Shown here: positions 1,834 to 61,986 of the stretch, piece after piece
How the letters are laid out: each line of letters begins with the position of its first letter
Position numbering within the stretch: position 1 is the stretch's first letter
Assembly (NCBI GenBank): GCA_947167075.1
Contig: CAMVGR010000004.1
Span: 73,597-137,596, forward strand
Direction: 5' to 3'
DNA: 64,000 nt
Source of the DNA: an uncultured Bacteroidales bacterium
GTDB taxonomy: Bacteria; Bacteroidota; Bacteroidia; Bacteroidales; P3
The notes under the pieces: generated by a model
Told to the model about the DNA's origin: nothing
What the model saw: the letters and a program-made list of their open reading frames with translations, nothing else
Databases searched by the model: none
Position numbers and translations under genes: made by a program

Positions 1834-1899
1834 GGTGCATGTACGGTGCATGTACGGTGCATGTACGGTGCATGTACGGATGAAGTACGGTGTAGGTAC
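1834..1899 (+). repeat. 11-bp phased tandem array, copy A: 4 perfect GGTGCATGTAC units plus 2 degenerate (GGATGAAGTAC, GGTGTAGGTAC)
   Basis: Read directly from the sequence. The array is intergenic, between 331..1608 and the EamA gene. Confidence 0.95.
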
Positions 1900-2082
1900 G
1901 AGGAAGGGGCTGATTTATATGTTTTTGTGAATTTTGAAGTATGGTAATATGTTGAGAATAAAAAGCTTGTAGCTGCAGAGTAGGGTACTTCTTTTGGGAT
2001 AGATATCGAATACGGGAAAGGTACCGACAGGGAATATGTGTATCCGGTCGGATAGAACGAAGGGGTGGATTGTGGGTGCAGA

Positions 2083-2988
2083 TTATCGGGTGGACTTGTG
2101 TTTCTTTCCAAGCACTACCAGCACGACAGCAGAGAGGATGAGCACTATACCGGCCAGCAGGCGCAGGGAGAAGGGCTCGTCGAAGACAAAGACACCGATG
2201 ATGACTGCCGTGGTTGGTTCGAGTGCTCCCAGTATGGCCGTTGGGGTGCTGCCCAGATATTTGGCGGCATATACCATCATGACTAGTGCCATGATGGCTG
2301 GTACAAGAGCTAGCCAACTCACCCATAGCCAGGCGCTAGGTGAGGGTGGAAGCATGAGCGGCTGATGGCTCAGCAATGCGTAGGCGGCCATTCCCAAAGC
2401 ACAGTAGAAGAGCACGTAGAAGTTTATCTTAAAGCTCGACATGTGGAGTGGCGATTTGTCGACCACGATGATATAGAGTGCATAGGTGAGTGCGGAGGCT
2501 AGTACGAGCATTACGCCGGTCATGCTGAGTGTTCCTTCGGCATCGCCCCAATAGAGTAGGACTACACCCGCCACAGAGAGCAGGATGGAAAAGAGGGTGG
2601 ACCACTGTATCTTTTCCTTGAAGAAGAGGGTCATGATGGCGGCAGTCATGACGGGGTAGGAGAAGAGTATGGTGGAGGCGATGCCGGCTGGCATGTGGTG
2701 GAAGCTGAGATAGAGCGTGAGCGAAGAGAGGATGAAGAGCAGTCCGAGCGAAGTGAGGGTGACGAACTCTCGTTTCGAGACGCGGAGTGTCTCTTGGCCG
2801 CGGACAGCCTTGTATAGCATCACGATGGCTATTATGACCCATGCTAGGCCGAACCGATAGAACAACACCGAGGGTGTGTTCATACCCTCGGCGTATAGGT
2901 TTAAGGCTCCCAGTGGATTGGTGCCGTAGCATACGGCGGCACCAATGGCACATACGATGCCAATAAGTTTTTTATTTCGGGTCATCAA
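2083..2988 (-). CDS. EamA/DMT-family membrane transporter
   Basis: 301 aa with about 10 hydrophobic segments and a duplicated EamA-like architecture. Its start overlaps the ftsZ stop. Confidence 0.7.
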   Translation of the reverse strand: MMTRNKKLIGIVCAIGAAVCYGTNPLGALNLYAEGMNTPSVLFYRFGLAWVIIAIVMLYKAVRGQETLRVSKREFVTLTSLGLLFILSSLTLYLSFHHMPAGIASTILFSYPVMTAAIMTLFFKEKIQWSTLFSILLSVAGVVLLYWGDAEGTLSMTGVMLVLASALTYALYIIVVDKSPLHMSSFKINFYVLFYCALGMAAYALLSHQPLMLPPSPSAWLWVSWLALVPAIMALVMMVYAAKYLGSTPTAILGALEPTTAVIIGVFVFDEPFSLRLLAGIVLILSAVVLVVLGKKHKSTR

Positions 2989-4607
2989 TCGGCTTGGTCG
3001 CGGAAGTAGGGGTTCTGTACTATGCGTCCATCGGCTCTGAGCGTGGTGGTAGACGACTCGCGCACGGCGGAATGGCGACCCTCGTAGAGGGGCGATTCGT
3101 CGGCGTTGTTGGCGGGCATGCTCTGCACCATGTCGGCTCCATTGGGGTTGTTGCGAAGCAGGTCGTGGATACGACGTATACGTTCGGCGGCAGCCTCGAC
3201 ATCGTTGTCGTTCATGAAAGCAGAGATGGGTTTCTCGACGATGGGTGCGGTGGCCACTGGCTCGATGGGTTTCTCTTGTGGTTCGGGCTGTACGATGTGG
3301 ATGTCGTCGACAAGGATGTCGGTCTGTGGCTCGTGGAGTTCGACCTGGGCCTGGGCAACAGTACGGGCCTGCTCGAGGGTGGGCTCGTCGTCTTCGAGTA
3401 TGAAGATGTGTTTTTCGGGTTCCTGTGCGGGTTCGGTGTGTTCGATGGCGACAGGTTCGACGATGACCTCGTCTGCAACGGGCTCATCGCGGTGTATCAC
3501 TACCATGCCTTCGTCGTCGGCTTTTGCTTCGGGTTCGACGATAGGGGTGGGGGTAGGTGTCTCGTCTTGTGGGAGGACGATGATCTGAGGCTCGGTTTTC
3601 TCGAGTTTGTTTTTCTCGAATCCTGTGGCGATGAGTATTACTTTTAGTTCGTCGCCCAGCGTCTCGTCGGGACCTGCTCCCCAGATGATGTCGGCGGTGC
3701 CGTTGGTTTTGTCGAGTACGTAGTCGGTGATTTCGGCTTGCTCGTCCATCGTCATCTCGTGTTCGGTCGAGTAGGTGAAATAGAGTAATACGTTTTTAGC
3801 ACCGCTGATGTCGCTGTCGTCGAGCAGTACGCTAGTGGTGGCTGCTTCGATGGCATCGTGTGCACGGTTGTCGCCGCGGCCACTGCCGGTACCCATCAGT
3901 GCGGTGCCACTATGCTCCATGACGGTGTTTACATCTTGGAAGTCGCGGTTGACGTAGGCGTTTTCGGTGATGATTTCGGCTATACCTTTGGCTGCGGTGA
4001 GGAGCACATCGTCGGCCATGCCGAAGGCTTCGCTGATGCGCATGTTGCCGAAGGAGCGTAGTTTGTCGTTGTTGATGACGATGATGGAGTCGACATGTTT
4101 GCGTAGCTCCTCGATACCGGCTTCGGCCTGTTCGCGCCGACGTTTGCCTTCGAAGCTGAAGGGGCGGGTGACGATGGCTACGACCAGTATTTTCTTGTTT
4201 TCGTCGTTCTCTAGATCGATACTCTTTGCTATTTCGGCGATGACGGGAGCTGCACCGGTGCCGGTGCCGCCGCCCATGCCGGCGGTGATGAAGAGCATCT
4301 GTGTGTTGTGGGCGATAGCTTCGCGTATGTCGTCGACTTTCGCTTCGGCGGCTTTGCGTGCACGCTCGGGTTTGTTGCCGGCTCCAAGTCCCAGGTCGCC
4401 CAGCGGTATTTTGTTGGGCACCGGTGAAGCGTTGAGGGCCTTCATATCAGTGTTGCAGACAATGAAGTCGACGCCTTCAATTCCCTCTTTGAACATGTGA
4501 TTGACTGCATTGCCGCCACCACCGCCAACACCGATCACTTTGATGTAAGAGGACTGCCCTTTGGGGGAATCGAATGTGAAAAAAGTGGAATTTGTGTTTT
4601 CTTCCAT
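2985..4607 (-). CDS. ftsZ: Cell division protein FtsZ
   Basis: Tubulin signature GVGGGGGNAVNHM and GGGTGTGAAP, followed by a long acidic/Pro-rich linker. It is the last gene of the dcw cluster. Confidence 0.97.
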   Translation of the reverse strand: MEENTNSTFFTFDSPKGQSSYIKVIGVGGGGGNAVNHMFKEGIEGVDFIVCNTDMKALNASPVPNKIPLGDLGLGAGNKPERARKAAEAKVDDIREAIAHNTQMLFITAGMGGGTGTGAAPVIAEIAKSIDLENDENKKILVVAIVTRPFSFEGKRRREQAEAGIEELRKHVDSIIVINNDKLRSFGNMRISEAFGMADDVLLTAAKGIAEIITENAYVNRDFQDVNTVMEHSGTALMGTGSGRGDNRAHDAIEAATTSVLLDDSDISGAKNVLLYFTYSTEHEMTMDEQAEITDYVLDKTNGTADIIWGAGPDETLGDELKVILIATGFEKNKLEKTEPQIIVLPQDETPTPTPIVEPEAKADDEGMVVIHRDEPVADEVIVEPVAIEHTEPAQEPEKHIFILEDDEPTLEQARTVAQAQVELHEPQTDILVDDIHIVQPEPQEKPIEPVATAPIVEKPISAFMNDNDVEAAAERIRRIHDLLRNNPNGADMVQSMPANNADESPLYEGRHSAVRESSTTTLRADGRIVQNPYFRDQAD

Positions 4608-4753
4608 TGTGCTTGTATATTTCTATCTTATTGATTAAGACTTCGTTATTTGTTTTTTGCTTATTCTTTTGGCAGTGTAAAATTACCAATTTTATTTGAC
4701 TCTATAACACTGATAATGCTTTATTTATCAACAGTGCGTTGTGAATTTCGTTT

Positions 4754-6145: not shown

Positions 6146-6176
6146 AGTGTATGTATTTTTTGTTTTATTTGCTTCG

Positions 6177-16759: not shown

Positions 16760-17707
16760 CTACCTGTCGTTGCTGTCCGGTTTCGTTGCGGCTGTTGCTA
16801 TCCGCTCTGCCACCCGCAGTCTTGCGCTGCGGGCCCTGCTGTTGGATTCCACCTCGCTGTCCGAGGCTTGTTTCTTGGCTATTTGACGCAGGGGCGACAG
16901 CGGATTGCCATAGAAGTCTTTCTCCACCTCTCCGTCGAAGTTGCCGGCTCGCATGTAGTTCTTCACCAGCCTATCCTCGAGCGAGTGATAGCTGATCACT
17001 ACCAGTCGTCCGCCTTCGCGAAGTATCTGTGTGGCTTGTTGCAACATGTCGCGCAGGGCCTCCAACTCGCCGTTCACCTCGATGCGCAATGCCTGAAAGA
17101 GCATGGCCAGGTATTTGTTCTCCGCCCCACGAGGCAGATGGCGCTGCACCGCTGCACGCAGGTCGCCAGTGGTGACCAACTCCTCCCGCGTGCGGGCTTG
17201 CACTATGGCGTGGGCCATTTGGCGGGCGTTGGGTAGCTCTCCGTATAGCCGGAGCAGGCGGACCATGTCGTTTTCCTCCATGCTGTTCACCAGCTCGCGA
17301 GCTGATGTGGGAGCATGACGGTCCATCCGCATATCCAACTCGCCGTCCAGCCGAGTGGAGAATCCACGTTCGGCGGTGTCGAACTGATGGCTGCTTACAC
17401 CGAGGTCGGCCAGCAGGCCGTCCACGTGGTGCACTCCCTGCAGCCGCAGAAAAGCTTTCAAGTGGCGGAAGTTCTCCCCAATCAGTGTAAATCGTGGGTC
17501 GTCGATGGCGTTGCGCTGTGCATCCTCGTCCTGATCGAAGGCTATCAGTCGCCCCTCTGGGTTCAACCGTTCGAGAATGGCACGCGAGTGGCCGCCGCCA
17601 CCGAAGGTGACATCGACATAGATGCCCGACGGATTGATATTCAGCCCGTCCAGCACCTCGGTGAGCATCACCGGTACGTGATAACTATTCTCACTGCTTG
17701 CTGTCAT
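16760..17707 (-). CDS. rsmH: 16S rRNA (cytosine1402-N4)-methyltransferase RsmH (MraW)
   Basis: YHVPVMLTEVL and DVTFGGGGHS motifs. I chose the start at MTASSENSYHVPVML (ATG 17707). It is the second gene of the dcw cluster. Confidence 0.92.
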   Translation of the reverse strand: MTASSENSYHVPVMLTEVLDGLNINPSGIYVDVTFGGGGHSRAILERLNPEGRLIAFDQDEDAQRNAIDDPRFTLIGENFRHLKAFLRLQGVHHVDGLLADLGVSSHQFDTAERGFSTRLDGELDMRMDRHAPTSARELVNSMEENDMVRLLRLYGELPNARQMAHAIVQARTREELVTTGDLRAAVQRHLPRGAENKYLAMLFQALRIEVNGELEALRDMLQQATQILREGGRLVVISYHSLEDRLVKNYMRAGNFDGEVEKDFYGNPLSPLRQIAKKQASDSEVESNSRARSARLRVAERIATAATKPDSNDR

Positions 17708-18158
17708 CGTCGACCGACATTGAGCCCAGCAGCTGTTCTGCACGTTGTGCATAGTCGCCGCCAGTCTGGTTCATCTTGTCGTAGGCCTGACGATCCCATA
17801 GCTCGATGAACTTGCCAGTCGATTGCAGTACCAGCTCTTTTGCCTTCGCTACCGTTGCCTTTTGCTCTGCCGGTATCAGCAAGCGATCGTTCGAATCGAG
17901 TTCGATGATGTTGCCCTCGGTCAGTTTGCGTAGCAAATCGCGATCCTCGCGACGGTAGGGGTTGAGCCGCTCTTGGAGTTTCTCCACTTCTTCCCTGAAA
18001 CTGGCATAGGTCCACAGCTCCAAACACTCGGCATAGACACTCTGGCGAATCACAAAACGTCCGTCCTCCGTCTCCAGTTGCCTCTTCAGGGCAATTGGAA
18101 ACTTGAACCGACCGTTCGAATCGACCTTACAGTATTCTTTTCCAAGTATTAACGCCAT
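17691..18158 (-). CDS. mraZ: Transcriptional regulator MraZ
   Basis: 155 aa with duplicated SpoVT/AbrB-like halves (DSNGRFKFP ... DSNDRLLIP). It is the first gene of the dcw cluster. Confidence 0.9.
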   Translation of the reverse strand: MALILGKEYCKVDSNGRFKFPIALKRQLETEDGRFVIRQSVYAECLELWTYASFREEVEKLQERLNPYRREDRDLLRKLTEGNIIELDSNDRLLIPAEQKATVAKAKELVLQSTGKFIELWDRQAYDKMNQTGGDYAQRAEQLLGSMSVDDDSKQ

Positions 18159-18606
18159 TTTTGCCTACTATTTTTCTGGGTGTAAAATTACGAAGAAAAA
18201 TCCAATTACTGCCTAAAAATGTTTTTTTTTACCTTTTTTATACAATTTTTGTTGTTCATAACCATAAACGCAGTTTTTAGGAAAAAGTTTCATGCAAATG
18301 AGTAAAAAACGCAATTGTCAAAATAAATACTTTATTATCAAGTATTTACGTGGTGCTCTTTTTGGCCATTTTATTATGATTTATCCCTTGCGGAAACTCC
18401 TGTTGGGTGTTGAAAACTTTTTCTGGGAATTCAGTTCGTCGTATGGTCACCCTTCAGCAATCAGCTCACCTCCCTCAACCATCCCCAACTATTCTCCTTT
18501 CTCCTCCCAATGCACAACCAGTCATTATAAAAAATGAAAGCTGTTGATAATTAGTACGATGCGCACATACGTGTACAGTAAATGGCTGATAAATAGTATC
18601 TTCTAC

Positions 18607-18661
18607 CTACCTGCGCCGTACTTCATCCGTACATGCACCGTACATGCACCGTAGATGAACC
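18607..18661 (-). repeat. 11-bp phased tandem array, copy B (2 perfect GTACATGCACC units on the top strand plus 3 degenerate)
   Basis: Top strand reads CTACCTGCGCC GTACTTCATCC GTACATGCACC GTACATGCACC GTAGATGAACC. This is the reverse complement of copy A's unit order. Confidence 0.95.
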
Positions 18662-18792
18662 GTGATTGCCGTGTGCCGACACGGACCTTTGGCGGAGTAT
18701 CCACCCTGTATATACTTCGGATCCTGCCTTGTGGGGCAACGCAAAGAGTGTCGTCGTTTGAAAAAAAATTTTGTCAGTTTCAAAATTATGTG

Positions 18793-18800
18793 TATTTTTG
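18793..18800 (+). promoter_or_regulatory. -7 promoter box (TATTTTTG) for 18882..20438
   Basis: Matches TAnnTTTG, 82 nt upstream of the ATG at 18882. Confidence 0.55.
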
Positions 18801-18881
18801 CATCGTCGAAGTAATGTCAAAAGTACATCTGCTCGACATAAAAAACATGTTTGTAAACGTATTAACCTAATCCTATACACT

Positions 18882-20438
18882 ATGAAAAAGTTAGCATTAA
18901 TAACGATAGCAGTGATCTATGGCTTGGGGCAATTGCAGCTACAGGCCCAGACCGACACGACGCACTATGGCGATTCGTGGATATGGGTTGAGCCCTTGGA
19001 CAGCAAAGTGGGGAAGATGGTAACTAAATGCAAAGACTCAACTATCTATGGGCATTGGGACACCGTTACAAATCCGTGGGAGAAATGGATTATCGATTCT
19101 ATTGTCTACTTTAGAAATATCTACAACAATATTTATGGCACACTTTGCAGTCCTAATTATGGATTCCCATATAGTGATACCGTCTCACAGACGATATATG
19201 GCATAGCGATTCCGATGCTGGTGTATGACCTAGACACCGACTGGTATTGGAAATATTGGAAAGAAACACAACATATTGATGAAAAAAATGTATGTGGCCG
19301 TAGAGAGGGCGACAGTGGCATTTGGGCAGGTATAACAAAGCCTGTAAAAACAATCAATGAACGCAACGAAAAAATCTATGTGTTTGAGGAATCGGTACGA
19401 TTGGGACCTAAGATGCTGACCGACGAGATAGATAAACTCATCGGCGGAACGGGTCAACTCCGCCGCACCTGTTTTATGTACGATTACGACACCACAGAGC
19501 CAGAAATGTATCGTCACGACACGGTGGAACTGCTCGAAATGTATTTCGACAAGCCCTACGAATACAAGGCAGGAGACACCATCTACGCATCCTACTTGCA
19601 TAATTACCCTGCAGGATACGATCTTGCAACGAGAATTATTTTCCCCTTTGTTGCAGATCATCCTAAATTAAAGACTAGCAAGTATAAGAATAAAAGACAA
19701 GTAGGGGCGAGTGGGTATGGTGGATTAAATGGTGAAGAGATCGATATAAGTGTTACCGACGATACTCTCTATGGTGGAAACCCAGGAACTACAGAAACAC
19801 CTCAAACTTTCCCCATAATAAAGTTGCGCTGCAGCACGCCGAGGGATTGGAGCATGACGACGGCGGCGGACTCGGCGGTGCTGACATGGCAGCACTTCGA
19901 CGGGGCCGAGGGCTACGAGCTGATGGTGAACAACATCACCCAGTGCGACAGCTCGGTGCTCCTCATCAGCGACCCCGACGCTGTGCAGCACACCCTGCAG
20001 GGGCTGGACAGCAACAGCTACTACCACGTGCGGCTGCGTAAGCTATGCCGCTATGCCACACCCACCTACGACACCATCGTGCCTAGCGACTGGACCGAGG
20101 TGTTCACCATCGGCAATCCCACTCCCCCCTGCGACACCACCGACACCACCATTGTAGACACCACCATCGTGGATACCACCGGCATACACCTAGCCGGCAG
20201 CCTGCGCCTCGAGCTGCAGCCCAACCCCGCCAGCGACATGGTGGAGCTGACGCTGGATGCCCCCGACGGAGGCCGGCTGACGCTGACCGACCTGGCAGGC
20301 CGCGAAGTGCTGCAGATGGCCATCCCCGCCCCGACCACCACCCTGCACCTCGACATCCACGCACTGCCCGCCGGAGCCTACCTGCTGAAGGTATCTACCC
20401 CCACCGGCACCGCCACCCGCAGGCTGCTGGTGCAGTGA
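18882..20438 (+). CDS. T9SS-secreted protein of unknown function (signal peptide, FN3-like module, C-terminal T9SS sorting domain)
   Basis: I take the start at MKKLALITIAVIYGLGQLQLQAQ (ATG 18882) rather than the ORF-track 18771. The C-terminus (LQPNPASDMVELTL...LPAGAYLLKVSTPTGTATRRLLVQ) is a typical Por/T9SS CTD. It contains a short DTTIVDTTIVDTT repeat. Confidence 0.8.
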   Translation: MKKLALITIAVIYGLGQLQLQAQTDTTHYGDSWIWVEPLDSKVGKMVTKCKDSTIYGHWDTVTNPWEKWIIDSIVYFRNIYNNIYGTLCSPNYGFPYSDTVSQTIYGIAIPMLVYDLDTDWYWKYWKETQHIDEKNVCGRREGDSGIWAGITKPVKTINERNEKIYVFEESVRLGPKMLTDEIDKLIGGTGQLRRTCFMYDYDTTEPEMYRHDTVELLEMYFDKPYEYKAGDTIYASYLHNYPAGYDLATRIIFPFVADHPKLKTSKYKNKRQVGASGYGGLNGEEIDISVTDDTLYGGNPGTTETPQTFPIIKLRCSTPRDWSMTTAADSAVLTWQHFDGAEGYELMVNNITQCDSSVLLISDPDAVQHTLQGLDSNSYYHVRLRKLCRYATPTYDTIVPSDWTEVFTIGNPTPPCDTTDTTIVDTTIVDTTGIHLAGSLRLELQPNPASDMVELTLDAPDGGRLTLTDLAGREVLQMAIPAPTTTLHLDIHALPAGAYLLKVSTPTGTATRRLLVQ

Positions 20439-27111: not shown

Positions 27112-28077
27112 ATGATTGGAATGATTGGAAGCGGGAGCTGGGCGACTGCTGCGGTGAAAATACTTCTCGAGAAACCCTCTCAGAAAGTTGTGTGGTGGGT
27201 GCATAGCGATGCTGTGTGTCGTGGGTTGAGCCGTAGCGGACGCAATCCCAATCATCTTAGTGCCATGCGGCTGGATAAAGCCCGAATCCAGCCCACCACC
27301 CTCTTGACCGACGTGCTACAGTCCTGTTCCATGGTGGTGCTGGCAGTGCCGAGTGCCTATCTAGTGGCTACGATGGAGGGTGCTCCTTCCGAGATGTGGA
27401 AGGGGAAGAAGGTGGTGTCGTTGGTGAAAGGATATGTCCCAGAGACCAACTGTGGCGTTTCGGACTATCTGAATGGCTATAAAGGCATTCCATACGAAGA
27501 TATCTGCGTGGTGAGTGGTCCTAGCCATGCCGAGGAGGTGGCTGCCAATCTTACCACCTTCCTCAATGTGGCCTCGCATAGCAAGCCGTTGTCGTGCGAG
27601 GTGGCAGACTTGTTCAGATGCCAATATATCCATCCCATTGTGGTGGAGGATGTGCATGCTCTGGAGTTGTGTGGCATGTCGAAGAATGTGTATGCTGTGG
27701 GAGCTGGAATGGCATCTGCCCTAGGCAATGGCGACAATCTGATAGCCGTGCTTGCCTCCGCTGCCGCTCGCGAGATGTACAGCCTGATAGGGCATAGCGA
27801 AATCGGATTCCACCTGCTTGGCGATCTGATGGTTACCTGCTTCTCCCGCCACAGTCGCAACCGTGCACTCGGCGAAGCCATCGTCGCCGGACAGAGTTGC
27901 CAGGAATACTTCCGACGTACCGGCATGGTGGCCGAGGGCTACTATTCGTCGCTAGTCATGCACAATATGAAGAAATGTGCACCCACCCCCATCGCCGACC
28001 ATATCTACCGTGTACTATACGAGAACGCCGACCCGGAAGCGGTAATGAAAGAACTAATAGACAATCTTTTCCAATGA
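27112..28077 (+). CDS. gpsA: NAD(P)H-dependent glycerol-3-phosphate dehydrogenase
   Basis: N-terminal Rossmann motif (IGMIGSGSWATA), SGPSHAEEV and NVYAVGAGM motifs. 321 aa. Confidence 0.85.
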   Translation: MIGMIGSGSWATAAVKILLEKPSQKVVWWVHSDAVCRGLSRSGRNPNHLSAMRLDKARIQPTTLLTDVLQSCSMVVLAVPSAYLVATMEGAPSEMWKGKKVVSLVKGYVPETNCGVSDYLNGYKGIPYEDICVVSGPSHAEEVAANLTTFLNVASHSKPLSCEVADLFRCQYIHPIVVEDVHALELCGMSKNVYAVGAGMASALGNGDNLIAVLASAAAREMYSLIGHSEIGFHLLGDLMVTCFSRHSRNRALGEAIVAGQSCQEYFRRTGMVAEGYYSSLVMHNMKKCAPTPIADHIYRVLYENADPEAVMKELIDNLFQ

Positions 28078-29168: not shown

Positions 29169-29260
29169 AGCACAAGTAAATCAGCTGTTTGCGACCTCCC
29201 TATCGGCTTATTTGTCCTTCACTGGCCCCTCATTGCAAGGTGAATGATACGTAGTTTCAC

Positions 29261-29315
29261 GGTGCATGTACGGTGCATGTACGGTGCATGTACGGTTGAA
29301 GTACGGTGTTGGTAC
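29261..29315 (+). repeat. 11-bp phased tandem array, copy C (3 perfect GGTGCATGTAC units plus GGTTGAAGTAC, GGTGTTGGTAC)
   Basis: Read directly. It lies in the convergent intergenic region between the acyltransferase and helicase genes. Confidence 0.95.
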
Positions 29316-29446
29316 GTACAGATGCCTGATTTATAGCTCAATAGGTATTGAACAATGCACTATCTGATTGATAGAATGGGTGTTGTGAAATGCGAATAAA
29401 TGCACTTGCAACAGTAGCATGACCGTAGGTATTGATAGGGTAGGGG

Positions 29447-33916: not shown

Positions 33917-33970
33917 TACCATGTCTTACTCAACTCTTACTCATCTCCTACTCATCCATTTACCATCCTT
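33917..33970 (-). repeat. Degenerate 11-bp phased array (copy G)
   Basis: CTTACTCAACT CTTACTCATCT CCTACTCATCC ATTTACCATCC. TAC recurs at spacings of 10, 11, 11 and 12 nt. The reverse complement, AGATGAGTAAG, resembles the GGATGAAGTAC flank unit of copies A and B. Confidence 0.6.
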
Positions 33971-41529: not shown

Positions 41530-41756
41530 CCACTTTTTTTTCACATGGATTGCAATTTTTGATTTTTTATGATTTATTGAGGTTTCGCGGTGCTCTTTTA
41601 TCATTTAGTCCCTTTTGGGTTGGATTACTTGCAGGTCGATGCAATCGGCTGTGTGTCAGCATGGCGATGGGCACCACTGCAGAATGAGGCCAAAGTCGGC
41701 TACCGCCTCCGGCATTTTAAGTCCGCACACGGTGCCTTCCGACACGGTGCTTATGC

Positions 41757-41811
41757 GAGGATGGTACGGTGCATGTACGGTGCATGTACGGTTCAAGTAC
41801 GGTGGAGGTGC
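41757..41811 (+). repeat. 11-bp phased tandem array, copy D (2 perfect GGTGCATGTAC units plus GAGGATGGTAC, GGTTCAAGTAC, GGTGGAGGTGC)
   Basis: Read directly. It lies in the divergent intergenic region between 38648..41407 (-) and 41886..43529 (+). Confidence 0.95.
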
Positions 41812-41885
41812 GTCTAGAATACTGAATGTGTGTTTATTTGGAGTTCGACACAATAAAACAGCCCAGTTGCAGTTAATGTGGTGGT

Positions 41886-53848: not shown

Positions 53849-54063
53849 CACAATTTTTTTGACATGTACGGGAACATATTTCCTTTTGCCTTTTTTATTA
53901 TAAACATATAAATTTGTAAGCCATTTATATTCATATATATGCGCTTCTTGTCGTTGGACTACTTGCCGCATATCATCAGCTCGTATCCGCTCCTTTCGAC
54001 TTCTTTTTGCACCCTTTTCTAACGCACTTGGCTCATCTTCGGCTCAATACACCCCTCTTCCAC

Positions 54064-54118
54064 GTATCACTACCGTACTTCAACCGTACATGCACCGTAC
54101 ATGCACCGTACATGAACC
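54064..54118 (-). repeat. 11-bp phased tandem array, copy E (top strand GTATCACTACC GTACTTCAACC GTACATGCACC GTACATGCACC GTACATGAACC)
   Basis: Read directly. It is intergenic, with the same unit order as copy B. Confidence 0.95.
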
Positions 54119-54228
54119 GTGACGATACGTGGGCAACATGGAGTATCGACGGTGCATCGACCTGCGGTGATGGAAGCAATGCCATGATGTTGGGGGAGAA
54201 AATATTGCGGCGATTGAAGAAAAGTTTG

Positions 54229-54236
54229 TATATTTG
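54229..54236 (+). promoter_or_regulatory. -7 promoter-like box (TATATTTG) 110 nt downstream of array E
   Basis: Matches TAnnTTTG. The next plus-strand gene is 54524..55240, beyond the antisense tRNA-Val. Confidence 0.4.
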
Positions 54237-54353
54237 CATTGTTTTTCACAACATCAAACAACAGTAAAACATGAACGAAACAAGCCGATTGGCTTTCTGG
54301 AACAGAATAGAAACCAACACGATGCACAGAATGGAACGGAAAAAGGGGACATC

Positions 54354-54376
54354 AAAAAAAGCCCTTGCAGAAGGGC
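54354..54376 (-). terminator. Rho-independent terminator after tRNA-Val
   Basis: On the minus strand, a GCCCTT-CTGC-AAGGGC hairpin followed by TTTTTTT. Confidence 0.7.
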
Positions 54377-54383
54377 TTCGGAG

Positions 54384-54458
54384 TGGTCTGTGGGAGATTC
54401 GAACTCTCGACCTCTTCCGTGTGAAGGAAGCGCTCTAAACCAACTGAGCTAACAGACC
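54384..54458 (-). tRNA. tRNA-Val (anticodon CAC)
   Basis: I folded the cloverleaf by hand from the reverse complement: acceptor GGTCTGT/ACAGACC, D-arm GCTC-AGTTGGTTTA-GAGC, anticodon loop TTCACAC, T-loop TTCGAAT. There is one A-C mismatch in the T-stem. 75 nt. Confidence 0.88.
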
Positions 54459-55347: not shown

Positions 55348-55352
55348 CCACT

Positions 55353-55583: not shown

Positions 55584-55763
55584 GATTTTTCTCCTAACGG
55601 CATTTCTTTTTATTTATAGTGTATGATAAAAAATTATCGAGATAATATAAAGTTGTAAAGATATGAAAAATGCTCCATCTGCCTAACGGACAGATAGATG
55701 TGTCTGTTCCCTGAGTCCGCTTCCCCCAAGGGAATACACCAGGCAAACTCCCTGTCGACTCTT

Positions 55764-55811
55764 GTATTGTGACTATACTTCGACCATACGCCCACCATAC
55801 ACCCACCTGTG
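55764..55811 (-). repeat. Degenerate 11-bp phased array (copy H)
   Basis: The reverse complement reads GGTGGGTGTAT GGTGGGCGTAT GGTCGAAGTAT AGTCACAATAC. It has the same architecture as copy A (core units, then a GAAGTAY unit). ATAC recurs every 11 nt on the top strand. Confidence 0.65.
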
Positions 55812-55911
55812 GGTGGTTCGTGCATGCGGCATCTCCCGCTGTCCATTGGGCGGATGGGGTGAAAAAAAATGTCAAAAAAGGATATTTTTTTGCGATATCA
55901 AAAAAAAGTTG

Positions 55912-55919
55912 TATTTTTG
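55912..55919 (+). promoter_or_regulatory. -7 promoter box (TATTTTTG) for 55956..59333
   Basis: Matches TAnnTTTG, 37 nt upstream of the ATG at 55956. Confidence 0.55.
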
Positions 55920-55955
55920 CACGTTTTATTACTAAGGTGATTTGTTTGTAAATAT

Positions 55956-58900
55956 ATGTATTTCAACGTTGTCACTATAAAAACTACTGGGGTCGTACGG
56001 CTCTTGCTCCTGTGCCTAATGCTACTCGTGGGTATCGGTGTCTCTGCACAGACGGAAATCACATCTTTGGGAAGCATCTCGCCCACTGGCAACTACAAGA
56101 TTGTTGCTGATATCGACGCCTCTTCTTTTTCCACCATCTCCTCCTTCAGCGGCACCCTCGAGGCCGCCATCAATCCCGAGACGCACATGCCCTATCGCAT
56201 CACGAACCTCTCCGCCCCCCTCTTCAACATCCTCGCGGGTACGGTGAAGAACCTGGTGATTGAGAGTGTCGCCATCAGCGGGCACACCGGCAACACCGGT
56301 GCCATTGCCTGCACCGCCAATGGCGCGGCGCGCATCTACAATGTGGGCATCCTCTCTGGCTCGGTGGGCGGCACAGGCAACACCGGCGGCCTGGTGGGCT
56401 ACCTCGACGGCACCGCCCGTGTGGTCAACTGCTATTCCTTCGCCGACATTACCAGCGGCACGGAGAAGGGCGGCCTGGTGGGCTACAACAACTATGCCAC
56501 CAAGTACAACGACCTGAAGACCATGGTGATGAACTGCATGTTCTACGGCGACATCACCGAGGGTGGTACTATTTCACCCATTTACGGGGGCTCCGCCATC
56601 AGCAACGACTACAATGCGAATAACACCAACCGGTTAAACAACTACAACTATTACCTCTACGAGTCACCCTTCAGCAAAAACAACACAACATCACACCCTG
56701 TCATCTCATCCTACAACTGTGCCCTCGCTGCCGAGCAACGTTTCCTGGTGCGCTTCGAATTCTACCGCCACCTGCTCAATTCCACTCGCGAGCTGGCCGC
56801 TTGGTATGCCACTGGCACTGCCAGCCAAAGCAGCATGCACAAATGGGTGCTCGACCTCAACATTGCCCCCTACCCCATACTGAAAGAGCAAGGCAAGTAT
56901 CCGTCGGTGGTGAACTACGACGCAACCTACACCTACATCGACGGAGCAAAGCAGAAGCGCGACACCATCACCGTACGCAACCACGGTGGGCAACTCGGCA
57001 CATTGACGGTTAATATCAGCCATCCGGCAACACCCACGGCAGGCCAATCATGGCCTTCAGGTGTCACCATCAGTCACGCCTCGCTCCAGATTCCCATACT
57101 TGACAAAGACACTGCCAACTATAATTTCAACTATCGAAAAATCCAACTTCCCTACTACAACGACGTGGGCGACAAGAACTACACCGACAACAAGGTGGTG
57201 ACGGGATGGATGATTACAGAAATGACAAACGGCACCCAGGGCAGCTACACCGAAACCAATTACGACTACCCCAACTACAACTACGCAGACCGCAGTACCT
57301 ATGCCAAAGACCTCTATAGTGAGAGTAGTCGCATCTTCTCCCAGGGCGGCTACTTCAATGTCCCCGATGGTGTGACGGCCATCACCATCGAACCCTACTG
57401 GGGTAAGGCGGCCTACCTCTCCGACGCCTGCTACGACCGCTACGGCTATAACAACACCGACAACCTGACTCAGGTTGGCGGGCAGCGTTACACCAACGGC
57501 AACACCTATACCATCAACGGCAGCAGCCAAGCGGTGTATACCACTGCCGCCAACGCTTTGGCGGCACTAACCGATGTTGCGTCACCTACGGTCTATGACT
57601 ATGCCGTGGTGCTGGTGGGCAACTACCACCACCATGCCACAACTGGCAAAAGCGGCCCCGAAATATCAAACGGCACGAAACCCTTCACCATCATGTCCAT
57701 CGACCTTAACCAGGACAACGAACCCGATTATTGTCTCATCTATCGAAGCGGCAAGAACCAACAGATTTCTCCCATCCGCTTCGACTTCATCACGGTGCCC
57801 GGCATGGTCATGGCGCACAAGATGGCATCACATGCCGACCTCGGCATCCCCGGCAACTGCACACCCAGAGGATGGTTTGAGATCACCACCACCGGCTTGA
57901 TTAAGTACGGACAGTTTGAGCACAGTTACAACGGCAAATCATTGGCACCCGTCATCTTCATGGGCGGTGTCATCGACCAGTTTGTTGCCAACAATACAGG
58001 TACTGGCGAGAACTATAATAATAAGACCAAATACATGCTTTTGGGCGACAATGTGTGGTTCAAGATGCTTAGTAATGGAGCGCACATGGACAAACAAAGC
58101 CCTACTCCTCATCGACCCATCTCTCTGACAGGAGGCGAGTACGAAAAACTCTATCTTTCAGGGTATTTCCGTCCCGACGCCAATGCATGCACAACTGCTA
58201 ATGGCGACCGCAACGCCGAATGCTACATTGACGGCGGCCGCTTCGGCGAAGTAGCCGGTGCCGGGCAGGAACAAATTTCGGGCAACGTCACATGGATGAT
58301 AGACCATGCCGACATGGAGAGTTTCTATGGCGGTGGCATCAACAAGGAGAACCCTATAACAGGCGACATAAGCACCACCATAAAGAACAGCCATGTGAAA
58401 CTTTTCTGCGGTGGTCCCAAGTTTGGTGATATGGCGACAGACAAAACCGTCACCACCGTGGCCACAGATTGCGTCTTCGGCACCTATTTCGGCGCCGGCT
58501 ACGGCGGCACCTCAATCTACAGGGAATGCCCGTCGGCATATAACCAATTCAACGACAAGAACTATAATTTCAATAGCTGGGTCAGCGGAAGTTATGGCAA
58601 AGCTGACGGCGCAAGCTACCGCGGAAAATACACATCGGGGAAGGGTGTGGCCTGTGGTCACGAGTACGAATTCTTTGGCGGATCGGCAGGCAATGTGGGT
58701 CGTCTGTATCTCAAATATGCCTCCTTCTCGTTGGCAAAGACCAACAATGTCACCTCCACGCTGACGGGCTGCACCGTGACAGGTAATTTCTATGGCGGCG
58801 GCAGTCTCGGCGAAGTCGTCGGCAGCGTTACATCCACACTCACCAGCTGTACGGTCAACGGGAGTGTGTATGGCGCGGGTTTTTCGGCCACCATCCCCTC

Positions 58901-59333
58901 GGCGAGTGTCATGGCGACAGGTGGCTATACACTGAACGGCAGCGCAACCAACCCATATTATAACGAGACCACCGGTGTGTATGAAAAGGCCGACCCTCCT
59001 GCCACTACCGAATACACGTGGACGAATGTCGAGAACCTCGACGGCGGTACTCAGACGTTATCGGACGACGGCTTTACTGTCAAAACCACAGAAAACCTTG
59101 ATGCTCTTGGTTCTGTGACGGGTGCCGTCACTCTCACCATCGGCGGTTCCAGCATTATTGGCACCGCTGGCAACCCTGCAACAGGCAATGTCTTCGGCGG
59201 TGGCGAAGAGAGTGCCGTAGAAGGCGATATCGAGGTTACGCTGCAGGACGAGACCGAAGTGCTTGGGAACGTCTACGGCGGCGGCAACCGCGGCGCCGTG
59301 ACAGGCAACACCTCGGTGCTCCTCAAAGACTGA
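55956..59333 (+). CDS. Large secreted repeat protein (1125 aa) with GGLVGY (GLUG-like) and GxxYGGG beta-helix-like repeats; no T9SS CTD
   Basis: Signal peptide (LLLLCLMLLVGIGVSAQ). N-terminal repeats (GNTGGLVGYLDG, EKGGLVGYNNY). C-terminal repeats (GNFYGGGSLGEVVG, GSVYGAGF, GNVFGGGEESAVEG, GNVYGGGNRGAVTG). The ORF ends inside the repeat run. Confidence 0.75.
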   Translation: MYFNVVTIKTTGVVRLLLLCLMLLVGIGVSAQTEITSLGSISPTGNYKIVADIDASSFSTISSFSGTLEAAINPETHMPYRITNLSAPLFNILAGTVKNLVIESVAISGHTGNTGAIACTANGAARIYNVGILSGSVGGTGNTGGLVGYLDGTARVVNCYSFADITSGTEKGGLVGYNNYATKYNDLKTMVMNCMFYGDITEGGTISPIYGGSAISNDYNANNTNRLNNYNYYLYESPFSKNNTTSHPVISSYNCALAAEQRFLVRFEFYRHLLNSTRELAAWYATGTASQSSMHKWVLDLNIAPYPILKEQGKYPSVVNYDATYTYIDGAKQKRDTITVRNHGGQLGTLTVNISHPATPTAGQSWPSGVTISHASLQIPILDKDTANYNFNYRKIQLPYYNDVGDKNYTDNKVVTGWMITEMTNGTQGSYTETNYDYPNYNYADRSTYAKDLYSESSRIFSQGGYFNVPDGVTAITIEPYWGKAAYLSDACYDRYGYNNTDNLTQVGGQRYTNGNTYTINGSSQAVYTTAANALAALTDVASPTVYDYAVVLVGNYHHHATTGKSGPEISNGTKPFTIMSIDLNQDNEPDYCLIYRSGKNQQISPIRFDFITVPGMVMAHKMASHADLGIPGNCTPRGWFEITTTGLIKYGQFEHSYNGKSLAPVIFMGGVIDQFVANNTGTGENYNNKTKYMLLGDNVWFKMLSNGAHMDKQSPTPHRPISLTGGEYEKLYLSGYFRPDANACTTANGDRNAECYIDGGRFGEVAGAGQEQISGNVTWMIDHADMESFYGGGINKENPITGDISTTIKNSHVKLFCGGPKFGDMATDKTVTTVATDCVFGTYFGAGYGGTSIYRECPSAYNQFNDKNYNFNSWVSGSYGKADGASYRGKYTSGKGVACGHEYEFFGGSAGNVGRLYLKYASFSLAKTNNVTSTLTGCTVTGNFYGGGSLGEVVGSVTSTLTSCTVNGSVYGAGFSATIPSASVMATGGYTLNGSATNPYYNETTGVYEKADPPATTEYTWTNVENLDGGTQTLSDDGFTVKTTENLDALGSVTGAVTLTIGGSSIIGTAGNPATGNVFGGGEESAVEGDIEVTLQDETEVLGNVYGGGNRGAVTGNTSVLLKD

Positions 59334-59360
59334 TTTTTCCAACTTTTTTTTCTTTTTTTT

Positions 59361-59388
59361 CAATTTTCAATTTTCAATTTTCAATTTT
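59361..59388 (+). repeat. (CAATTTT)4 heptanucleotide tandem repeat directly upstream of the EF-G2 promoter box
   Basis: Read directly. It is preceded by two T-runs (T9 C T8) and followed 5 nt later by the -7 box. Confidence 0.95.
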
Positions 59389-59393
59389 CTTTG

Positions 59394-59401
59394 TATCTTT
59401 G
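59394..59401 (+). promoter_or_regulatory. -7 promoter box (TATCTTTG) for the EF-G paralog
   Basis: Matches TAnnTTTG, 93 nt upstream of the ATG at 59494. Confidence 0.55.
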
Positions 59402-59493
59402 CACCCTCATACCACACCGCTGCACATAGTGGCGAGTGCGTTTATGACACTATCGTTCAACGAAATAAAGAATAAAAATAAATAACAGTAACA

Positions 59494-61626
59494 ATGAAAA
59501 TTTATCAGACACAGGACATTCGCAACATCGCCCTCGTAGGCGGTGCCAAGAGCGGCAAGACCAGCATGGCCGAGGCCATGGCCTTCTGCGGAGGCCTCAT
59601 CAACCGTCGTGGCAGCGTAGACAGCAAAAACACCATCAGTGACTATCGCGACATCGAGCACGACCGCGGCTATTCCGTGGAGAACACCCTCATGTACACC
59701 GAATTTGGTGGCAAGAAGGTGAATATTCTCGATGTGCCTGGCTTTGCCGACTATCAGGGTGAGCTCGACAGTGCCCTCAACGTGGTCGAGGCTGCCGTCG
59801 TTGTGGTCAATGCCCAAAGTGGTGTTGAGGTGGGCACCGAGATTGCCAACCGCTACGCCGCCAAGCTCGACACCCCGATGATCTTCGTTATCAACCACCT
59901 CGATGCAGAGAAGGCCAACTTCGATGAGAGCGTCAACCAACTGAAGGACTACTTCGGTGGCAAGTGCACTGTGCTGCAGTTCCCGACCAATGCCGGTCTG
60001 GGATTCAACCAGGTGGTCGACATCGTGGCCAACAAGATGTACACCTTCACCGACGGTAAAATGACCGAAGCCGACATCCCTGCCGAGTATGCAGACAAGG
60101 CCGAAGAGATGCGCATGGCTCTCGTCGAGGAAGCTGCTGCTGCCGACGATGCCCTGATGGAGAAATACTTCGAGAATGGTGACCTCACTGCTGAGGAGCT
60201 TACCCAGGCCCTTAAGCTTGCCATCGACAAGCGCGACCTTTTCCCCATCCTCTGCACCAGCGCAAAGGAGAACTTCGGTGTAAACCGTCTGCTGGAGTTC
60301 ATCTGCCAGAACGTCCCCGCCCCCTGCGAGGTGGCCGACTGCAAGAAGACCAAGGGCGGCAAAGAGCTGAAGAGCAACAGTGCCAACCCCACCGTGGCTT
60401 TCTGCTTCAAGAGCGCTAAGGATAAGAATCTTGGTGAAATCAGCTATCTCCGCATCTACGACGGCGAGCTGGCCGAGGCACAAGATGTGGTCAACGCTTG
60501 CAATCAGAGCAAGGAGCGCGTCAGCCAGGTGCTCGTGTGCAGTGGCAGCAACCGTCAGCGTGTCGAGAAGGCTTGCGCCGGCGACATTGTCTGCACCATC
60601 AAGCTGAAAGATGTCAAGATCAACCACACCCTCACCACCCCGAAGAACACCGACGACGCCGTGTGCGAAATCGAGTTCCCGACTCCTATCTACACCGTCG
60701 CAGTGAAGGCCGCCAACAGCAACGACGACGAGAAGGTCGGCGCCGCGCTGAAGGACCTCGTCACCTACGACCGCTGCCTCACGCTCGAGAACAGCCGCGA
60801 GCTGCGCCAGGTCATCCTCGGCTGCCAGGGCGAGCTGCACCTCAACACCGTGAAGTGGTACTTCGAGAACCAGTACAAGCTGGCCGTCAACTTCACCGCC
60901 CCCAACATCCCCTACCGCGAGACCATCACCAAGAGCGCCGAGGCCATGTATCGCCACAAGAAACAGTCGGGTGGTAGCGGTCAGTTTGGTGAGGTGCACA
61001 TGCTCATAGAGCCCTACTACGACGGCATGCCCAACCAGACCAAGTACCCTATCCGCGACACCCAGGAGTATCCGCTGGAGTGGGGCGGCAAGCTGGTCTT
61101 CAACAACTGCATCGTGGGCGGTTCGATCGACGCCCGCTTCATGCCCGCCATCCTCAAGGGTATCATGGAGAAGATGGAGCAGGGTCCTCTCACCGGTTCC
61201 TATGCCCGCGACATCGTCGTCAACATCTACGACGGTAAGATGCACCCCGTCGACTCCAACGAAACGGCCTTCAAGATTGCCGGCCGTACCGCCTTCCGCG
61301 AGGCCTTCAAGCAGGCTGCCCCGAAGATCAAGGAGCCTATCTACGACATCGCCGTCACCGTGCCCACCGAGGCACAGGGTGGCGTGATGACCGACCTGCA
61401 GGGTCGCCGCGCCATCGTCATGGGCATGGATGCCGAAGGCAAGTACACCACGCTGAAAGCCAAGGCCCCCTTGGCCGAGATGAACCGCTACTGCACCGCC
61501 CTGAGCTCCCTCACCAGCGGCCGCGGTACCTTCACCATGACCTTCAGCAGCTACGAGCTCGTCCCCGCCGATGTCCAGCAGGCTCTCCTCAAAGCCTACG
61601 AGGAAGCCGCCGCCGAGGAAGAGTAG
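59494..61626 (+). CDS. Elongation factor G paralog (EF-G2-type) with degenerate GTPase motifs
   Basis: Five-domain EF-G-like protein of 710 aa. G1 is GGAKSGKTS. G3 is DVPGFADY, where canonical EF-G has DTPGHVDF, so Phe replaces the catalytic His. G4 is NHLD where the canonical motif is NKxD. Strong GC3 codon bias. Confidence 0.85.
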   Translation: MKIYQTQDIRNIALVGGAKSGKTSMAEAMAFCGGLINRRGSVDSKNTISDYRDIEHDRGYSVENTLMYTEFGGKKVNILDVPGFADYQGELDSALNVVEAAVVVVNAQSGVEVGTEIANRYAAKLDTPMIFVINHLDAEKANFDESVNQLKDYFGGKCTVLQFPTNAGLGFNQVVDIVANKMYTFTDGKMTEADIPAEYADKAEEMRMALVEEAAAADDALMEKYFENGDLTAEELTQALKLAIDKRDLFPILCTSAKENFGVNRLLEFICQNVPAPCEVADCKKTKGGKELKSNSANPTVAFCFKSAKDKNLGEISYLRIYDGELAEAQDVVNACNQSKERVSQVLVCSGSNRQRVEKACAGDIVCTIKLKDVKINHTLTTPKNTDDAVCEIEFPTPIYTVAVKAANSNDDEKVGAALKDLVTYDRCLTLENSRELRQVILGCQGELHLNTVKWYFENQYKLAVNFTAPNIPYRETITKSAEAMYRHKKQSGGSGQFGEVHMLIEPYYDGMPNQTKYPIRDTQEYPLEWGGKLVFNNCIVGGSIDARFMPAILKGIMEKMEQGPLTGSYARDIVVNIYDGKMHPVDSNETAFKIAGRTAFREAFKQAAPKIKEPIYDIAVTVPTEAQGGVMTDLQGRRAIVMGMDAEGKYTTLKAKAPLAEMNRYCTALSSLTSGRGTFTMTFSSYELVPADVQQALLKAYEEAAAEEE

Positions 61627-61692
61627 TTTCATGCTTCGCGTGGTGCAGTCGCGAATTTCGCGACCATCAGCGTCCCGCATCATCAACATCAA

Positions 61693-61721
61693 AGGGTGTC
61701 CCCATCGGGATGCCCTTTTTT
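61693..61721 (+). terminator. Rho-independent terminator after the EF-G paralog
   Basis: AGGGTGTCCC-CATC-GGGATGCCCT hairpin (two G-U pairs) followed by TTTTT. Confidence 0.7.
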
Positions 61722-61816
61722 AACGCCATTTTTTTCATAACGATAGATGCCTCCATACCCCCATTGGGATGCACACACACATCTCTTCTTGTGCTGTCCC
61801 CTATAATAATATATAT

Positions 61817-61842
61817 ATATATTCTTCTTAAGAAGAATATAT
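61817..61842. repeat. Perfect 26-bp AT-rich palindrome
   Basis: ATATATTCTTCTT|AAGAAGAATATAT, a perfect dyad that I verified base by base. Confidence 0.9.
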
Positions 61843-61931
61843 GAATCAAGTAGTTACATATATCTATAAGTCCATGCCATCCCTATATTAAGCCTATACT
61901 ATCTCTATACCAAGTCTATAGTAACAAGGAA

Positions 61932-61986
61932 GTACCTCCGGTGTACCGCTTATGTACCTTCGGTGTTCCTTCGTCCTTCCGATACC
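61932..61986. repeat. Degenerate 11-bp phased array (copy F)
   Basis: GTACCTCCGGT GTACCGCTTAT GTACCTTCGGT GTTCCTTCGTC CTTCCGATACC. GTACC/GTTCC/CTTCC recur at exactly 11-nt spacing. Confidence 0.65.

Follow-up and report, generated by a model that had tools for sequence, protein, structure and literature searches.

In a 64-kb stretch of DNA from an uncultured, gut/rumen-type Bacteroidales bacterium (hereafter the window; 49.8% G+C), the intergenic regions harbor a family of short tandem arrays with a strict 11-bp period, built on the unit GGTGCATGTAC. This family is a dispersed intergenic tandem-repeat element that is specific to its lineage and, as far as we could find, undescribed in print, and it is neither a copy-number switch nor a conserved operator of a regulon of exported or type IX secretion system (T9SS) proteins. 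Our tentative reading, to which we give a little less than even confidence, is that in the arrays we see copies of one dispersed, non-coding minisatellite element specific to this lineage, similar to repetitive extragenic palindromic (REP) sequences and to the BrickBuilt element of Porphyromonas gingivalis, and that this element probably binds an oligomerizing protein.

The array family and its anatomy

Matches to the unit are far in excess of chance. Allowing up to one mismatch, GGTGCATGTAC has 16 matches in the window as compared to 1.38 expected, with none of 100 shuffles reaching 16, and the pattern GTACGG-N5-GTACGG-N5-GTAC has 12 matches as compared to 0.00 expected. Tandem Repeats Finder returned period 11 at all eight loci (A1 to A8, Table 1) that had been named in a first-pass annotation made from the sequence alone, and the units keep to one 11-nt register. 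The annotation's claims of a dispersed family and of strict one-turn phasing are thus borne out, its coordinates of the perfect units and its unit counts (4, 2, 3, 2 and 2 for A1 to A5) were reproduced exactly, and unit number does differ between loci as it had said (two, three or four perfect units). Aside from the promoter consensus, no other dispersed repeat was found in the window.

All eight arrays lie outside called genes, both by our own list of open reading frames (ORFs) and by gene calls on same-species contigs, in agreement with the annotation's description of every copy as intergenic and without coding potential. It was also right that this is not an array of clustered regularly interspaced short palindromic repeats (CRISPR): the units abut with no spacers between them, and no cas genes occur among the scanned array neighbors. 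A CRISPR or a coding repeat is therefore ruled out by the spacer-less units and by the position of all copies outside genes. Restriction-site avoidance or a methylation cluster was ruled out as well, as GTAC and CATG are not avoided in the window (observed/expected 0.85 and 0.87). The most under-represented 4-bp palindrome in the whole window is GATC (observed/expected 0.55), followed by CTAG (0.60) and GCGC (0.67).

The element measures about 100 bp in register, i.e., 9-10 in-register 11-mers in a fixed order, or about 80 bp by alignment. It extends beyond the earlier description, since a head and two tail 11-mers share the array register. The head, CGTnnnnnCAC, is sometimes followed by a degenerate GGTTCATSTAC, after which come two to four perfect GGTGCATGTAC units, GGWTSAAGTAC, GGTGnnGGTAS, and the two tail 11-mers, GTnGAAGAnnC and then TGATTTATAGC. 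The unit order given in the first-pass annotation held in all five clear copies, although the last unit deviates slightly from what it described (A2 GGCGCAGGTAG, A5 GGTAGTGATAC). A5 has an additional 1-mismatch unit at 54108-54118, and its array is flanked by a 9-bp inverted repeat, CCACGTATC/GATACGTGG; flanking inverted repeats are also present at A1. The three copies that had been called degenerate are all real 11-bp arrays but are unequal in kind, with A7 being a diverged copy, A6 an array of another unit, and A8 a composite whose best orientation is probably opposite to that of the other copies.

In local alignments, pairwise homology between copies is confined to about -4 to +77 around the array, and the dispersed unit therefore has sharp edges. 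No terminal inverted repeat or duplication was found at the edges of the window copies, in keeping with the annotation's own statement on terminal inverted repeats and target duplications. The (G)TACGG core recurs each 11 bp, so that all cores point to the same side of the helix. The 12-mer GGTGCATGTACC forms, in each case, a near-perfect dyad with two G/A-type mismatches; as RNA, the G-rich strand, unlike its complement, could therefore fold back on itself by way of G-U pairs. Static curvature was predicted under a dinucleotide wedge model in which a phased A-tract control scored high. A1-A5, A7 and A8 fell at the 58th-88th percentile of the window and A6 at the 98th, and intrinsic static curvature was ruled out on the low ranking of the family arrays relative to the control.

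Stability, insertion and wider occurrence

Several strains of the same species were gathered by way of contigs that encode MraZ, SecG and further small proteins in identical form. Three strains share the three perfect units of A3, with flanks 94-97% identical, and in two of them there are 0 changes in 29241-29336 (96 bp) versus 10-11 in the other 182 bp of the 278-bp gap. A2 differs between strains in its last unit and its flanks but not in its perfect units or its GAAGTAC unit; the array-spanning contigs (L117, L118) have 2 units, and shorter contigs (L122, L123) end inside the array. The unit-number check gave 4 units at A1. A6 varies between strains at the same pace as its flanks. The first-pass annotation had offered a slippage-prone contingency element as one possible role, and the identity of unit number and sequence in strains with 3-6% flank divergence is evidence against it; the element core is either constrained or homogenized between strains. 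Short-read same-species contigs end within arrays, and by coordinate arithmetic the same-species contig NODE_310 appears to start at about A4. Separately, one strain (ERZ12289773 NODE_131) is without window positions 18741-20304 (1564 bp), so that the promoter and most of the T9SS gene 18882-20438 are gone and A2 is kept.

Two syntenic sister-species loci were located through helicase homologs at ~80% identity. In the window, 278 bp including A3 separate the helicase gene from the acyltransferase gene, versus 2 bp or an overlap in the sister species, and the gap before T9SS gene 34403 is 672 bp with A6 in the window versus 171-188 bp. The alignment of the latter gap shows that its promoter-proximal 180 bp are conserved in the sister species and that ~500 bp including A6 are extra in the window. 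Since A3 and A6 are missing at the syntenic positions, they are lineage-specific insertions and not conserved operators. The family accounts for intergenic assembly breaks in this Bacteroidales group and for the large gap differences between sister species.

The arrays of the sister species use other cores, namely TCCGAC and TTTTGCA. One sister species has two opposed pairs of period-11 arrays, neither with units related to the window family: (TTTCTTTTGCA)n opposite (TGCAAAAGAAA)n at L146:8415-8503, and (TCCGACnnnnn)5 opposite (GTCGGAnnnnn)6 at L146:13529-13649, with cores kept and fillers differing. Because of the extra unit in one arm, these opposed pairs are not simple hairpins.

An exact 22-mer of the family is absent from 185,579 species-representative genomes and was found in only three metagenome contigs, one of which is a eukaryote-like minisatellite. 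The metagenome contig L002 (41% G+C) contains a copy 85% identical to A2 and its head-side flank over 190 bp (18599-18788). This homology starts exactly at a -7-like box on the G-rich strand, and the L002 neighbors, a DUF3990 gene and an AbiEii-like ATPase gene, are unrelated to the A2 context. A related element was found in a Paludibacteraceae locus (L012); its unit is GGTGATAGTAC, and the variant units GGTGAAAGTAC and GGTGGAG come after it, ordered as in the window. The unrelated context in L002, the contigs breaking in arrays and the order in L012 are signs of spread.

A degenerate search (GTACGG every 11 bp, three times) found more than 113 genomic loci among the matches listed, many of them in Bacteroidota, with a constant core and varying filler. 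Period-11 arrays that conserve a core (often TACGG) and vary a 5-nt filler recur across Bacteroidota, with the apparent commonness of the TACGG core being biased, as the search pattern required GTACGG at 11-bp spacing. Judging from these sequences, the persistence of the core amid varying filler is more like an array of sites than plain slippage. In the window, 8 of 18 tandem arrays have period 11, as do 4 of 12 at the sister-species loci; the share in additional tandem arrays is 19 of 95 at other Bacteroidota loci and 12 of 324 at loci of other phyla, both figures being indicative only because each of those loci was picked for holding one such array. Elsewhere, the arrays lie in tandem (10), divergent (7) and convergent (3) gaps. 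The neighbors at 31 other Bacteroidota loci are housekeeping genes with no functional theme, no enrichment of integrases or transposases was seen among 103 neighbors of other arrays, and annotated phage and plasmid collections gave no match.

Composite arrays occur in other Bacteroidota as well. At L014:1100-2200, in a Saprospiraceae metagenome-assembled genome (MAG), seven GTGGGAAnnnn units are followed by five GTACGGAnnnn units, and the composite is present twice, ~920 bp apart. The composite phased arrays of other Bacteroidota classes (L014, L038, L055) include TCGAAGGATGn units followed by GTACGG units.

Gene context, phage arrays and neighboring features

The window contains the dcw cluster, T9SS cargo genes and S46 peptidase genes, and the nearest named relatives of its proteins are labeled "MAG: Bacteroidales bacterium". 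The genes between the window copies are core genes (dcw cluster, secG, EF-G). A3 lies in a convergent gap, A2, A4 and A5 in divergent gaps, and A1, A6, A7 and A8 in co-directional ones. A1 is found 184 bp past the stop of an EamA gene (2083-2988, minus strand). A2 sits between the divergent mraZ (17691-18158, minus) and a T9SS C-terminal-domain gene (18882-20438, plus), A3 between a convergent acyltransferase gene (28074-29168, plus) and PIF1-type helicase gene (29447-30784, minus), and A4 between a divergent T9SS C-terminal-domain gene (38648-41407, minus) and a tetratricopeptide repeat lipoprotein gene (41886-43529, plus). A tRNA-Val gene (54383-54458, minus) lies in the neighborhood of A5, and A8 falls between the elongation factor G (EF-G) gene (59494-61626, plus) and a DUF6266 gene (62112-62807, plus). 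The proteins downstream of A1 and A2 are unrelated, which rules out a segmental duplication of a gene with its upstream region.

Bacteroidota promoters have the consensus TTTG at -33 and TAnnTTTG at -7, and -7 boxes were called in the window with this consensus. Measured from the head end, the -7 box is 132 bp away at A1 and A2, 111 bp at A5, 101 bp at A7 and 228 bp at A4, with none at A3.

Table 1. Positions of the eight arrays and of called -7 boxes in the window.
Feature	Position	Strand	Composition or context
A1	1823..1921	+	head CGTTCCGCGAC, 4 perfect GGTGCATGTAC (1834-1877), GGATGAAGTAC, GGTGTAGGTAC, tail GAGGAAGGGGC TGATTTATATG
A2	18585..18672	-	head ACGGCAATCAC, GGTTCATCTAC, 2 perfect units (18629-18650), GGATGAAGTAC, GGCGCAGGTAG, tail
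A3	29250..29337	+	head CGTAGTTTCAC, 3 perfect units (29261-29293), GGTTGAAGTAC, GGTGTTGGTAC, tail GTACAGATGCC TGATTTATAGC
A4	41735..41833	+	head CCTTCCGACAC, GGTGCTTATGC, GAGGATGGTAC, 2 perfect units (41768-41789), GGTTCAAGTAC, GGTGGAGGTGC, tail
A5	54042..54129	-	head CGTATCGTCAC, GGTTCATGTAC, 2 perfect units (54086-54107), GGTTGAAGTAC, GGTAGTGATAC, tail
A6	33917..33970	+	different unit type (CTTACTCATCT-type): CTTACTCAWCT x3, then ATTTACCATCC
A7	55764..55811	-	diverged copy, every core ATAC (TGGTCGAAGTA, TGGTGGGCGTA, AGGTGGGTGTA)
A8	61879..61988	+	composite phased array: 4 CTATAC-type units, then GTAC-type units
-7 box TACCTTTG	1702-1695	-	gene 331-1608; 132 bp from A1
-7 box TATTTTTG	18793..18800	+	gene 18882-20438; 132 bp from A2 array end
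-7 box	54229	+	111 bp from A5
-7 box	55912	+	gene 55956-59333; 101 bp from A7

Arrays with a different unit were found in phages. When viral contigs were searched for GTACGG every 11 bp, recurrent Bacteroides phage groups with arrays were retrieved. In one of these groups, an array of three to four CTCCGTACC units begins 8 bp past the stop of a gene for an Arm-DNA-bind_5-containing tyrosine integrase; TTTGCA palindromes come after the array. A stretch of about 95 bp in this phage region (L168:8625-8735) is nearly identical to the gap between an argC-like and an argF'-like gene in three Bacteroidales genomes (L098:4760-4940, L104:5430-5610, L095:5625-5850), comprising the three to four CTCCGTACC units and GTTTGCAAGGTTTGCATGCAAACTTTGCAAAC. 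Integrases only 48% identical adjoin the same ~95-bp sequence, and the orthologous argC/argF' arrays of the three Bacteroidales species have conserved cores and changed fillers. By sequence, the ~95-bp stretch looks like a long common attP/attB segment. The locus demonstrates that a host can conserve an array of this class beside operator-like sequence and that phages make use of such arrays; the array common to phage attP regions and the chromosomal arg locus points to such arrays being integration targets as well. Nevertheless, this phage link does not make the window copies attachment sites, because no integrase is present (a tblastn search with the phage integrase found no homolog in the window) and core genes lie between the copies.

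Other phage arrays lie inside very long ORFs. At L185:7532-7559 and L163:4754-4781 (both viral), a GGTACGG x3 array is preceded by 11-bp-spaced GTTTGCA repeats; one ORF encodes a polyvalent protein of 3593 aa that has InPase and C-5 methylase domains, the other a product of 1256 aa. Between related phages with GGTACGG x3 arrays, variation sits in the filler positions.

The gene downstream of A8 belongs to DUF6266, an uncharacterized family. An 11-bp phased array is found 69-313 bp upstream of DUF6266 genes in four of six independent loci, namely window A8 (gene 62112-62807, plus strand), L247 20814-20836 (gene L247:19949-20725, minus), L071 3724-3762 (gene L071:2632-3411, minus) and L257 1388-1432 (gene L257:1501-2271), the last array lying between a -7 box and the ATG. 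The remaining two DUF6266 groups have a conserved leader motif, GCCGTATTTGGTCAATGTTTC, in place of the array. Neither a PHROG match nor viral relatives were found for the family, and DUF6266 as a phage gene is thus ruled out.

Several further features of the window were seen. A perfect heptamer array, TTTTCAA x4.7, at 59357-59389 adjoins a -7 box (TATCTTTGCA) upstream of the EF-G gene, and the 761-aa minus-strand ORF 59407-61692 is a shadow of that gene, having no Pfam match whereas the plus-strand product has EF-G domains. A strong Bacteroidota-type promoter, TTTGTATATTTGCA (window 54229-54380), lies 111 bp away from A5. Ahead of it there is just a short ORF (54271-54438), which extends into the tRNA-Val on the other strand, both its terminator and its body; the transcript from this promoter could be a small RNA or encode a small protein. 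Lastly, the right end of the window (62877-63953) and the next 10 kb (together L249:10001-21077) contain genes for a WYL regulator, a DUF4062/HATPase_c_4 protein, a caspase-like Peptidase_C14, a 1038-aa CHAT protein and a PIF1-type helicase, a stretch that looks like a defense island.

Explanations and comparison with described repeats

Helically phased protein-binding sites are, in our view, the best physical reading of the arrays: the one-turn phasing, the dyad-like units, the conservation of core versus filler and the opposed arrays fit a one-face array of sites for a dimeric or oligomerizing protein. In this account, the element has been copied into the intergenic DNA of this Bacteroidales species, and each array would be a landing pad for such a DNA-binding protein, which might coat or bend ~60-100 bp of intergenic DNA by analogy with iteron/parC-type or OmpR-type direct repeats. 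At half of the loci, this coating or bending would take place 100-140 bp upstream of a promoter of the Bacteroidota type; both the binding and a possible effect on transcription are predictions. We would like to note that a number of points weigh against this reading. No DNA-binding gene is linked to the family, and no binding protein was found. Real operator sets are normally degenerate between loci, whereas the window copies are near-identical, and gene conversion between copies could keep the arrays identical without selection. Position and strand relative to transcription are inconsistent (A3 is in a convergent gap, A4 is 228 bp from its promoter, and A1 and A3 are downstream of genes). 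No route of spread was found, i.e., no terminal inverted repeat, target duplication, or nearby transposase or integrase. Furthermore, the TACGG-core class was retrieved with a pattern requiring GTACGG and is therefore biased, and the sister-species arrays use other cores. If protein binding is real, the family points to a DNA-binding factor with a simple rule, an 11-bp period with a short core, and this rule could map the factor's sites across a gut phylum with poorly known promoter architecture and nucleoid proteins. A broader version, which we consider doubtful, is that period-11 conserved-core arrays are the footprint of an undescribed Bacteroidota system in which a sequence-specific protein polymerizes along one face of the intergenic DNA (as a site-specific nucleoid, insulator or promoter-architecture factor), with the GGTGCATGTAC family as one lineage's version, temperate phages using the arrays as attachment sites, and DUF6266 genes maybe a part.

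[quoted passage not shown] The near-identity of the copies, their presence or absence between sister species, the occurrence of the same element in an unrelated context in another organism (L002), tandem, divergent and convergent placement roughly as gap length predicts, array neighbors without a functional theme and the drift of A6 at the pace of its flanks are all consistent with a selfish repeat. However, the terminal inverted repeats, target duplications, transposase and integrase of such an element are missing, the order of variant units is conserved even in another family-level taxon (L012), A3 is invariant while its flanks diverge, and period 11 with unrelated unit sequences points to a helical constraint and not to accident. 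The first-pass annotation had instead proposed upstream operator or enhancer sites for a regulator of exported and T9SS-cargo genes, which we regard as improbable. All six of the genes it named do start with signal-peptide-like or transmembrane-like N-termini, but so do 23 of 46 window genes by the same crude test, and although six of the eight arrays face a gene start as it had claimed, three of those six lie in divergent gaps where either orientation would face a gene. Similarly, all three T9SS C-terminal-domain genes of the window have an array in their upstream gap, the operon of 331-1608, downstream of A1, has a Por_Secre_tail protein gene next in line, and four arrays (A1, A2, A5 and A7) lie 101-132 bp upstream of -7 boxes; yet of the 11 intergenic gaps that measure 250 bp or more, 8 contain an array, and "upstream of exported-protein genes" is hence confounded with "in long intergenic DNA". 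The frequent proximity of BrickBuilt to C-terminal-domain genes of the Por secretion system (PorSS; PMC4596501) favors such operators, whereas the promoter of T9SS gene 34403 is kept in the sister species without an array, A3 in its convergent gap has no gene to regulate, one strain lost T9SS gene 18882-20438 and retained A2, and the arrays of the 31 other Bacteroidota loci adjoin ordinary housekeeping genes.

An element acting at the RNA level is about as improbable as exported-gene operators, taking together a G-U hairpin of the G-rich strand (in a small RNA, leader or terminator) and a C-rich, G-poor periodic Rho-loading (rut-like) site. GGUGCAUGUACC is self-complementary when G-U pairs are allowed, and against shuffled controls the folding of the G-rich strand is the more favorable (z -1.6 to -2.6, versus about 0 for the other strand). 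The start of the A2/L002 homology at a -7-like box on that strand and the position of the L257 array between a -7 box and an ATG are also in its favor, and so is the fact that in tandem gene contexts, elsewhere and in the window, 10 of 13 arrays are co-oriented with transcription such that the C-rich strand is read. On the other hand, a shared promoter or terminator is missing from most copies, three of the eight lie between divergent genes with an inconsistent strand relative to their neighbors, and variable-filler arrays cannot form hairpins. Conserved RNA structure was rejected, as the covariation term is about 0 (three sequences) and only the strand asymmetry in folding energy remains. A known Rfam RNA family was rejected as well, with only two tRNAs in the window at gathering score and nothing credible at E up to 10 around A2. 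Integration sites or integrase arm-type repeats left behind by integrative elements are very improbable. The phage array lying 8 bp past the stop of an Arm-DNA-bind_5 integrase, with its ~95 bp shared with Bacteroidales chromosomes, speaks for them, but the phage unit sequence is different, the genes between window copies are core genes, and no integrase or mobile-element gene lies in the window or beside the 31 genomic arrays; neither an adjacent tyrosine integrase nor a mobile-element boundary, the marks of attachment or arm sites, was found in the window. A slippage-prone locus whose unit number switches the expression of flanking genes is hardly credible: unit number does differ between loci, but its constancy at the same locus across strains already contradicts such a switch, and the arrays are far from the -33/-7 spacer and not inside ORFs.

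A full-text literature search turned up no paper that describes the motif or, for Bacteroidota, phased arrays of 11 bp, in line with the first-pass annotation, which knew of no described element with this structure; a literature lead on dCas12f and sigma-E proved unrelated. Nevertheless, several known systems are similar in part. Helically phased sites are known from the 11-bp iterons of R1 parC (bound by ParR), the 11-bp direct repeats of the OmpR/PhoB/ArcA type and the arm-type sites of integrases, and repeats at 10-11 bp centre-to-centre put proteins on one helix face for cooperative binding. The window arrays are likewise direct repeats at this spacing, with the likeness to parC concerning mechanism only. 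Unlike these sites, they have no adjacent par or int gene and no link to a response regulator (Pfam scans of array-flanking genes found no partition-type domains, no dedicated ParM/ParR search having been run), and they are near-identical rather than degenerate, with many copies per genome. They also lie 100-240 bp from promoters as compared to -35 to -100 for OmpR-type sites; the conservation at orthologous promoters and the closeness to -35 that characterize OmpR/PhoB-type operators were not seen, the arrays being 101-228 bp from -7 boxes.

Two further groups are looser parallels than BrickBuilt, to which we return below. REP sequences are single imperfect palindromes of ~35 bp, mostly transcribed 3' of genes and linked to RAYT transposases, and in E. 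coli they and bacterial interspersed mosaic elements (BIMEs) are bound by host proteins (gyrase, IHF). Similar to REP/BIME, the window family has many non-coding, intergenic copies with near-palindromic units; in contrast to REP, it forms a phased tandem array, and three of its eight copies lie between divergent genes. No RAYT gene was seen in the 64-kb window, a stretch too short to judge its presence in the genome. The other group consists of short tandemly repeated repetitive (STRR) sequences together with TAACTGA heptamer arrays. The latter occur in cyanobacteria, Beggiatoaceae and some Bacteroidetes (PMC4679880). Both resemble the window family in being dispersed, intergenic sets of two to tens of short tandem units with an orientation bias toward downstream genes, and differ from it in their period of 7, their position often a few nt from start codons and their lack of a fixed head, variant and tail.

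The closest published element is BrickBuilt, a minisatellite-bearing MITE of Porphyromonas gingivalis (Klein et al. 2015, PMC4596501). It has ~19 dispersed copies that are always intergenic, promoter activity is reported within it or close by, and many copies adjoin PorSS (T9SS) C-terminal-domain genes (PMC4596501). As its unit sequence is not printed in the text of that paper, the comparison was made by description and by a search for its terminal repeat. BrickBuilt differs from the window family in having a 23-nt unit (versus 11), a length of up to 991 nt, IS5-like terminal inverted repeats TGCAAAGGTCTC and some target duplications. With up to three mismatches, TGCAAAGGTCTC has 54 matches in the window versus 54.8 expected, and CAAAGGTC has 2 versus 1.8; terminal inverted repeats of the BrickBuilt/IS5 type are thus at chance level in the window and were ruled out. 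Like BrickBuilt, however, the window family is found in a Bacteroidales host and consists of spacer-less tandem units between a conserved leader and tail, and its copies are dispersed and intergenic, vary in unit number, and in many cases lie beside T9SS C-terminal-domain genes.

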